A stretch of DNA of 53,280 nucleotides, taken from the NCBI RefSeq assembly GCF_003334815.1, contig NZ_QOWO01000028.1, one strand, 5' to 3'. Origin of the DNA: Escherichia coli. Lineage in GTDB: Bacteria; Pseudomonadota; Gammaproteobacteria; Enterobacterales; Enterobacteriaceae. Of this stretch, positions 8,589 to 48,647 are shown piece after piece; the first letter of the stretch is position 1, and each line of letters begins with the position of its first letter. The notes beneath the pieces are model-generated. The model searched no databases. It was given only the letters and a program-made list of their open reading frames with translations, and had not been told where the DNA came from. The position numbers were made by a program, and so were the translations under genes.

Positions 8589-8619
8589 GGCATTTCATTC
8601 CGTTCTGATGGCATTTCAT
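8589..8619 (+). promoter_or_regulatory. Direct repeat GGCATTTCAT-N11-GGCATTTCAT (YpdB response-regulator binding site of the yhjX promoter)
   Basis: Two perfect 10-bp direct repeats at 8589-8598 and 8610-8619 with an 11-bp spacer, about 85 bp upstream of the yhjX ATG. Matches my recollection of the published YpdB motif. Confidence 0.5.
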
Positions 8620-47228: not shown

Positions 47229-48128
47229 TCAGTCCAGGTACTCTTTCATTACGCCAGCCAGCCACTGCATAAACAGGTTTACACGCCGGGAAAGCTCCCG
47301 ACGCTGCGGATAAACCAGCGAAAGGGAGAGCGGCTCGGCACGGTAGCCAGGTAATACTTCAATAAGCCGCCCGGCACGCAGGGCTTCGCGCACGGCAATG
47401 CGCGGGATCTGAATAATCCCCAGACCGGCAAGACCGGCGGTGAGATAGTTTTCGCTACTGTTTACCGTCAACATGCCGCCAGACTTAAACCACTGGACGC
47501 CATTAACGCTGGCAACCTCAAAACCTAACGGATGTACACCCAGGTGCGGTGTATAACGCACTATTGCGTGTGAAGTCAGATCATCGGGGCTTTGCGGATA
47601 ACCAAAGCGCGTCAGATAGTGCGGACTGGCACAGTTGACCATGGTCAGTTTGCCGAGGGGACGGGCGATAACGCCATCTTCCGGTAACGCGCCAGTGCGT
47701 ATCACGCAATCAAAACCATCATGAAGAATATCTACCGGACGGTCATGGCTACTCAGTTCCAGCTCAATTCCCGGATGCAGATAGAGAAATTCCGACAGGC
47801 GCGGCAGTAACAGGCTTTTCGCGATTCCTGGCGGGATGTCGATGCGTAATTTACCGCTGATACTGGTGGCATCCTGTTGAAACAGACCGTCCAGTTCGCT
47901 GAGATTACTCAACACATCTTTTGCTCGTTGATAATAGGTCATGCCTTCTGGCGTGAGTTTGACCCGTCGCGTGGTGCGCTGGAGAAGCTGGGTGCCAAGT
48001 TGATGTTCCAGTGCCTGTATCTGGCGCGAAACACTTCCCTTTGGCAAAGCAAAGAAATCCGCTGCGCGGGAAAAACTTTCCAGCTCCGCGACTTTGATGA
48101 ACAACTGCATTGCGTGAATTTTATCCAT
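47229..48128 (-). CDS. yhjC: LysR-family transcriptional regulator YhjC (299 aa)
   Basis: N-terminal LysR HTH (MDKIHAMQLFIKVAELESFSRAA) and substrate-binding domain; start trimmed. Confidence 0.88.
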   Translation of the reverse strand: MDKIHAMQLFIKVAELESFSRAADFFALPKGSVSRQIQALEHQLGTQLLQRTTRRVKLTPEGMTYYQRAKDVLSNLSELDGLFQQDATSISGKLRIDIPPGIAKSLLLPRLSEFLYLHPGIELELSSHDRPVDILHDGFDCVIRTGALPEDGVIARPLGKLTMVNCASPHYLTRFGYPQSPDDLTSHAIVRYTPHLGVHPLGFEVASVNGVQWFKSGGMLTVNSSENYLTAGLAGLGIIQIPRIAVREALRAGRLIEVLPGYRAEPLSLSLVYPQRRELSRRVNLFMQWLAGVMKEYLD

Positions 48129-48647
48129 TTCTTTGACCGATTGTTGTTCACAGCGAAACAGTAACGCGCATATCGCATTGTTTATTGTTTTTTCTAACAT
48201 CTAATGCCGGGTTTCACAATGTTGTCATGCCGAATGTGGCGATTTCTCAGCAGGAAAAGGGCGGAATAGCTTTCTGAGAAAGGTGAATCCCCTTAAACAG
48301 AGCGTATTTTTCAGCGATTCCCTTTAAAGTGAACAGAGGACGTGTTGGCTATTTGTGCTTATTTTTGTCTCCTTGCCGTTTGTTATTTTGGCTTGTGGTC
48401 GCGGAATTTCATTTTTAATTGCATGCGTACTAACCACCAATATAAGGAAATCCTCAAAATTGTTTTAAATAGTGCCCTCGACATGTAATTTCAGGCGTTT
48501 AGCTGTAACTATTTATATCGGTAACTATTTTCTACACGTCATCTCTGTAGAATGGCCACCGCCAAATGGCGAATTCTTATTTTTTCTCGCGGGTAATACC
48601 CTTCCACTACTTAAGTCTTTTTAACGTATTCAGGTGGAGATTCAGTT

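Follow-up and report, generated by a model that had tools for sequence, protein, structure and literature searches.

Proteins that recruit RNA polymerase to a promoter with a weak −35 region, or that block it there, usually have their site centred near position −63, and the half-sites read by response regulators of the OmpR/PhoB type repeat every 10-11 bp. To our knowledge, the orphan and atypical response regulator YhjB is among the few proteins of this kind in Escherichia coli for which no signal, partner kinase, regulon or control of its own synthesis is known. Publications on the LysR-type protein YhjC (RcdB) of Shigella and Salmonella, the product of the neighbouring gene, give no binding motif beyond the generic T-N11-A, and the searchable literature held nothing relevant on RcdB motifs or on regulators acting on yhjB. 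Induction of Salmonella yhjB by indole (7-20-fold) has been published. In an in vitro run-off array, RNA polymerase without further factors transcribed the spacer between yhjC and yhjB towards yhjB, slightly preferring sigma-S (PMC3141248), and we found neither an assigned site nor a start point for the yhjB promoter in the searchable literature.

The window analysed here is a stretch of 53,280 nucleotides of E. coli K-12-like DNA that covers treF, yhjB, yhjC (rcdB) and yhjD; any position x within it corresponds to coordinate 3720542 - x of NC_000913.3. An initial annotation had singled out two identical 10-mers, 16 bp apart from start to start, in an AT-rich spacer flanked by a LysR-type and a LuxR-type regulator gene, and this description is borne out: both copies read GTAACTATTT, the yhjC-yhjB intergenic region (48129-48647) comprises 519 bp with a GC content of 39.7% versus 51.9% for the whole window, and the flanking genes encode regulators of the two types named (Table 1). 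Its remark that no known motif can be assigned to the repeat also holds true of the searchable literature. The likeness of the two copies reaches into 15-mers (TAGCTGTAACTATTT and TATCGGTAACTATTT) that agree at 13 of 15 positions. The open reading frame of yhjC runs 24 codons upstream of the annotated start MDKIHAMQ (48129-48200, minus strand), which corresponds to 323 rather than 299 amino acids.

Table 1. Features of the yhjC-yhjB spacer and its flanking genes, in window coordinates.
Feature	Position	Strand	Remarks
yhjC/rcdB coding sequence, 299-aa annotated form, LysR type	47229-48128	-	from annotation
Published protein-binding zone near yhjC	48194-48229	.	YhjC peak and PhoB box; separate from the repeats
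Palindrome TAAGGAAATCCTCA (TAAGR-N4-YCTTA)	48443-48456	.	present in Escherichia, Citrobacter and Salmonella; outgroup self-consensus 0.82
Inverted third copy ACTATTTA (TAAATAGT on the plus strand)	48466-48473	-	kept only in Escherichia
TGTAAT, probable partner half-site	48484-48489	+	identical in 18/19 taxa; 20 bp upstream of the copy-1 TGTAA
Constrained island: AGCT, copy 1, ATATCG, copy 2, TC	48501-48532	+	32 bp, within Escherichia
Copy 1 of GTAACTATTT	48505-48514	+	5' part within the deeply conserved AGCTGTAA motif
Copy 2 of GTAACTATTT	48521-48530	+	overlaps the −35 zone; Escherichia-specific
TAGAAT, probable yhjB −10 hexamer	48548-48553	+	GTArAATGG invariant across 19 taxa
Leader block CC..GCCAAATGGCGA.TTCTTATTT....CGGGTAATACCCTTCC	48556-48606	+	highly conserved; context, outside the repeat
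yhjB coding sequence, 200 aa	48648-49250	+	GerE/LuxR-type C-terminal domain

Given a scan of 53 kb, the repetition by itself is not beyond chance. The window holds six close exact direct repeats (at least 10 nt, spacing at most 40 bp), against 1.67 ± 1.29 expected from first-order Markov simulations, and the simulated probability of at least one such repeat in the 519-bp spacer alone is about 0.033. The five others, 10-11 nt in length, lie at window positions 8589, 16202, 17307, 21769 and 43653; TGCTGGCGCTG and TGGCGCTGGTG are examples. An inverted-repeat search revealed no local dyad within 48495-48535, the nearest partners being 34 and 67 nt away. It is conservation, rather than repetition, that exceeds chance expectation.

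Conservation was assessed in an alignment of orthologous yhjB upstream regions (263 bp before the start codon) from 19 taxa, namely eight Escherichia lineages (including E. albertii, E. whittamii and E. fergusonii), Intestinirhabdus alba, six Citrobacter lineages and four Salmonella sequences. Within E. coli, the spacer is present at 96-100% identity in 5424 of 5426 complete genomes. Its yhjC-side half is poorly conserved even inside Escherichia; the 210 bp proximal to yhjB hold discrete conserved blocks, which are the palindrome TAAGR-N4-YCTTA, the hexamer TGTAAT, AGCTGTAA (48501-48508), GTArAATGG (48547-48555) and the leader block that follows it. Among the 11 outgroup sequences, identity to K-12 amounts to 0.98 for TGTAAT and 0.93 for GTAGAATGG, to 0.75 for copy 1 (0.99 in Escherichia), to 0.55 for the 6-bp spacer between the copies, and to 0.40 for copy 2, of which only C48525 and T48526 are conserved. 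The surrounding spacers range from 0.26 to 0.43, so that outside Escherichia copy 2 does not rise above background. The conservation of copy 1 is due to its 5' half, which belongs to an old motif: the TGTAA at its start is almost invariant in Escherichia, Citrobacter and Salmonella, and two TGTA motifs recur in nearly all taxa at −63 and −43 (±1) from the GTArAAT block. The conservation check proposed in the initial annotation therefore has a divided outcome, with the TGTAA of copy 1 kept almost without change and the direct repeat as such absent outside Escherichia.

The initial annotation had placed the repeat in a divergent region, and this framing is misleading, as the conserved block stays with yhjB where yhjC is absent or separated from it. 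Four Citrobacter lineages (C. farmeri, C. sedlakii, Citrobacter sp. Marseille-Q6884 and Citrobacter sp. RHB25-C09) carry a gene for a short-chain dehydrogenase between the two regulator genes; E. fergusonii is without a full yhjC and has only yhjD and a 57-codon remnant upstream of yhjB. The conserved blocks, TGTAAT and copy 1 among them, are retained in E. fergusonii and in all four of these Citrobacter lineages. Hence, the element belongs to yhjB rather than to a shared divergent control region, which also argues against YhjC as its binder.

Several further observations concern the gene neighbourhood and the distribution of YhjB. In place of treF downstream of yhjB, Salmonella and Citrobacter have a phage-lysozyme-family and/or acetyltransferase gene, followed by a gene with a HEPN_STY4199 domain. 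In E. coli strain I3 (NZ_CP195969.1), an IS1 transposase gene interrupts the yhjC-yhjB spacer, and the match accordingly falls into two parts over 1357 bp. Among E. coli-derived YhjB entries, many comprise 211 amino acids and match only about 83% of the 200-residue query at 98-100% identity, one of them being present on 221 contigs, which points to a frameshift or to a common allele whose end differs. A scaffold of 241 bp (NZ_GG693467.1), assigned to Limosilactobacillus vaginalis, encodes a stretch 100% identical to YhjB residues 76-155 and is probably E. coli contamination.

The agreement between the two copies rises towards E. coli, from 1-5 of 10 positions in Salmonella, Citrobacter and Intestinirhabdus to 8 of 10 in E. 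fergusonii (GTTACTTTTT), 9 of 10 in E. albertii (GTAACTCTTT) and 10 of 10 in the E. coli clades. TGTAA and the −10 block lie 43 bp apart in Escherichia and 42-44 bp apart in most outgroups, so that no 16-bp insertion has taken place in Escherichia. Taken together, the rising match and the unchanged length indicate that point substitutions in the Escherichia lineage, rather than a tandem duplication, gave rise to copy 2. Both copies and the spacer between them look constrained in this genus. Across the eight Escherichia sequences, 7 of the 32 columns of the constrained island vary as compared with 21 of 25 in the flanking spacers (Fisher p = 3.5e-6, a value that is only indicative, since the eight sequences are related and their columns phylogenetically non-independent). 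Of the complete E. coli genomes, 5037 carry the 32-bp block without change, against 1359 for the adjacent 32 bp. Among the E. coli variants sampled, SNPs fall at 48536-48539, between copy 2 and TAGAAT, and one variant carries GTAACGATTT in copy 1.

Which promoter these sequences might serve is suggested by the alignment. TAGAAT, or TAAAAT in Salmonella, C. amalonaticus and I. alba, is the sole fully conserved TAnnnT hexamer across the 19 taxa, and it lies 17 bp after copy 2. If this hexamer is the −10 element, transcription of yhjB is predicted to start at about 48558-48561, which would place copy 2 roughly between −39 and −30, and copy 1 roughly between −55 and −46. The −35 hexamer at a spacing of 17 bp would then be CTATTT, the tail of copy 2, which matches TTGACA at one of six positions. 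CTATTT combined with TAGAAT attains a weight-matrix score of 1.5, below the shuffled median maximum of 7.7, because the −35 is poor; several Citrobacter species have the somewhat better combination TTCTCT-16-TAGAAT (score 6.4). A simple sigma-70 weight-matrix scan of the spacer detected no strong promoter on the yhjB strand, and a consensus scan returned a single promoter-like site, on the yhjC strand, and no terminators. It is possible that a promoter further upstream overlaps the palindrome, in which case the repeats would fall within a 5' UTR. The Salmonella version of the palindrome also reads as a possible −10 (TAAGAT) by weight matrix.

The stretch formed by the −10 block and the leader block is itself unusually conserved. 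The 60 non-coding bp from 48547 to 48606 (GTAGAATGGCC..GCCAAATGGCGA.TTCTTATTT....CGGGTAATACCCTTCC) show a cross-genus identity of 0.76-0.90, compared with 0.72-0.77 for the yhjB coding sequence. Rfam gave no match near the gathering score, the single-sequence folding of the leader was no better than that of shuffles (z = −0.68), and a metagenome scan with the conserved leader pattern returned two Salmonella-like loci only. RNAalifold leaves the repeats unpaired and places its helices, two small hairpins, solely in the downstream block, with 0 of 21 pairs compensatory. The leader segment UUCCACU (48602-48608) can pair with the ribosome-binding GGUGGAG of yhjB (48633-48639), and the model pairs UUCC with GGAG in 16 of 16 sequences, in which these positions are invariant and hence show no covariation; judged by this folding, UUCCACU could be an anti-Shine-Dalgarno element.

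We favour the reading, at a probability of roughly one half, that both 10-mers belong to the promoter-proximal control DNA of yhjB and do not form a unit that YhjC or YhjB recognises. With TAGAAT/TAAAAT as the probable −10 hexamer, copy 2 would fill the weak −35 zone and copy 1 would lie just upstream of it. The ancestral element would be the TGTAA pair, whose members (48484 and 48504), separated by 20 bp, share a face of the helix and would be centred near −63; copy 1 would be the downstream member of this pair, and the pair would most likely be the site of a putative regulator that either assists or obstructs RNA polymerase at a promoter whose −35 is poor. In Escherichia, the sequence of the −35 zone would have drifted by point substitutions into a second GTAACTATTT, and copy 2 and the 6-bp spacer may now be retained in one of two roles, as an additional GTAAC half-site (the third) or as a −35 or upstream promoter sequence specific to the lineage. 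The idea of regulator binding put forward at the outset is thus plausible for this stretch as constrained promoter-proximal DNA; the 10-mer pair as one site is unsupported, copy 2 being confined to Escherichia. A more specific proposal, which we regard as tentative and doubtful, is that the TGTAAT-N14-TGTAA pair, joined in Escherichia by the third GTAAC, constitutes the operator of a putative regulator and that this operator, along with the leader at 48547-48606, would control YhjB. In a comparison of consensus motifs, none of CpxR, RstA, OmpR, TyrR, EvgA, GntR, Fis, IHF, Lrp and CRP gave a convincing cross-genus fit in both sequence and spacing, and we know of no factor whose consensus fits TGTAA-N15-TGTAA or the 16-bp direct repeat.

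Two other readings of the repeat are unlikely. According to the first, both copies form a true direct-repeat operator of Escherichia, where a putative regulator on GTAAC-N11-GTAAC, possibly with TGTAAT as part of a three-site array, controls yhjB. Three GTAA(C/T) motifs are indeed present (48485, 48505 and 48521), constraint within the genus extends to both copies and the 6 bp between them, and the weak −35 suggests dependence on an activator; yet copies spaced by 16 bp look towards roughly opposite sides of the helix, an arrangement that matches no direct-repeat family known to us. Copy 2 is moreover absent in Citrobacter, Salmonella and Intestinirhabdus despite the conservation of yhjB and of the rest of the promoter, and the exact identity of the copies is broken by the natural variants GTAACGATTT, GTAACTCTTT and GTTACTTTTT.

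According to the second, the repeat is a chance product of AT-rich promoter DNA, such that the repetition and copy 2 have no specific function and the conservation in Escherichia reflects short divergence and general promoter constraint. The contrast between the island and its flanks in the same eight genomes (7 of 32 versus 21 of 25 variable columns) speaks against this reading, as does the conservation of the copy-1 TGTAA across four genera. It gains from the six comparable repeats of the window against about 1.7 expected, from the absence of the repeat in the outgroups, and from the state of E. fergusonii, which already matches at 8 of 10 positions, so that just two T-to-A changes are needed.

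The initial annotation had suggested YhjC and YhjB as binders. An auto- or cross-regulatory site for one of them would lie near both genes, and LysR-type regulators often act on divergent neighbours. Published ChIP-exo peaks are given in NC_000913.2 coordinates, which we take to be 1977 lower than those of NC_000913.3 at this locus; the conversion was checked at 1.25 Mb only, where a matching offset of +777 puts the YhjB peak into the dhaK-dhaR spacer. On this basis, the YhjC peak at 3670355-3670371 corresponds to window 48194-48210, about 300 bp from the repeats, and YhjB has one peak genome-wide, at dhaK/dhaR (PMC8464067 supplement). Both data sets come from a single growth condition, glucose minimal medium, a restriction that leaves some room for a site occupied under other conditions. 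Both families typically bind dyads, unlike the direct repeats seen here; the palindrome is a better candidate for a LuxR-type protein, and the block persists without an adjacent yhjC. We consider binding of YhjC or YhjB at the repeats improbable, and the two proteins first suggested are not borne out by the mapped peaks.

Other published signals fall on the yhjC side of the spacer as well. A PhoB box, TTTCACAATGTTGTCATG, has been published twice at 48212-48229 (PMC3465305, PMC10294691), with a PhoB peak at 3672318 of NC_000913.3 (window 48224), and a YqhC ChIP-exo peak flagged as RNA-polymerase-bound covers 48220-48258 (PMC8464067 supplement). None of the mapped YhjC, YhjB, PhoB and YqhC peaks touches 48505-48530. 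PhoB was considered as a binder of the repeat, since CTGTAAC is Pho-box-like and yhjC/yhjB appear in two PhoB surveys, but the mapped motif TTTCACAATGTTGTCATG is about 290 bp off. The YhjC, PhoB and YqhC signals all fall within 48194-48258, at 66-130 bp before the start of yhjC, in what is probably the yhjC promoter. Low-signal peaks at rplC/rpsJ and treR recur in the YqhC and YhjC lists, which suggests that they are ChIP hot spots.

The palindrome upstream of the TGTAA pair resembles the RcsA/B box TAAGAATATTCCTA (PMC12388358), and it is a better candidate than the repeats for a site of a LuxR/NarL-type dimer, be it RcsB or YhjB itself. Further upstream, GCACAAATAGCCAAC (48346-48360, minus strand) resembles a mar/sox/rob box. 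A SoxS ChIP site, GCACATTTTGTTAAA, has been published for the Salmonella yhjB<>yhjC spacer (1171-1185 of our Salmonella locus L018), and the two are similar in position and orientation.

A very improbable reading takes copy 2 for the −35 element of an extracytoplasmic-stress promoter of the sigma-E type (GTAACTA, 16 bp, TCTGT). The sigma-E consensus is GGAACTT-N16-TCTGA, and K-12 positions 48521-48548 match it at 5 of 7 and 4 of 5 bases with the right spacing; the AAC core is, however, absent in E. fergusonii and in all outgroups, and membership of yhjB in that regulon was not found in the searchable literature. Hardly credible, finally, is a remnant of a 16-bp tandem duplication or a feature at the level of RNA or a small ORF: the repeat is head-to-tail with a 16-bp period, but duplication is refuted by the lack of any extra length relative to the orthologous regions and its units match beyond the 10-mer at only 1 of 6 positions, no structure is predicted over the repeats, and of the ORFs that do exist (48472-48624 and a 14-codon ORF at 48552-48596) the latter has lost its frame in C. 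farmeri, ends prematurely in Citrobacter sp. Marseille and shows no concentration of variation at third codon positions.

If the tentative proposal of an operator at the TGTAA pair is correct, E. coli, Citrobacter and Salmonella would have in common a conserved regulatory module for YhjB. The conservation footprint steers away from binding assays with YhjC or YhjB on the repeats; the bases worth targeting are the TGTAA pair, TAGAAT, the palindrome and the leader block rather than the eye-catching pair of 10-mers. Otherwise the site looks like an ordinary, unassigned promoter element, and the conserved architecture that surrounds it offers a reasonable starting point for the study of YhjB.

How the locus compares with described systems can be stated for four of them. 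LysR-type sites are interrupted dyads (T-N11-A), and the position between a LysR-type gene and its neighbour recalls them; the repeat differs in having no local dyad, the YhjC peak lies elsewhere, and the element is kept without an adjacent yhjC. With the boxes of winged-helix response regulators (PhoB, OmpR, CpxR, RstA) it shares direct repetition and TGTAA/GTAAC-like half-sites, CTGTAAC being similar to a Pho-box half-site, whereas its spacing is 16 bp for the 10-mer pair or 20 bp for the conserved pair, and the PhoB site mapped in the spacer (48212-48229) differs in sequence. The conserved palindrome 50 bp upstream, 14 bp long, is of the kind found in the RcsA/B box and in NarL/FixJ sites; the 10-mers are a separate site and, being direct and 16 bp apart, do not show the palindromic half-site arrangement of the LuxR/NarL/FixJ type to which YhjB belongs. 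For yhjB, transcription start, sigma factor and binder are all putative, and TGTAA-N15-TGTAA fits no consensus that we could assign; what its promoter region has in common with activator- or repressor-dependent sigma-70/sigma-S promoters of class I/II, in which an operator lies upstream of a weak −35, is a conserved TAnnnT −10 with a poor −35, short motifs 20 bp apart in fixed helical phase that would be centred near −63, and a further motif overlapping the −35.
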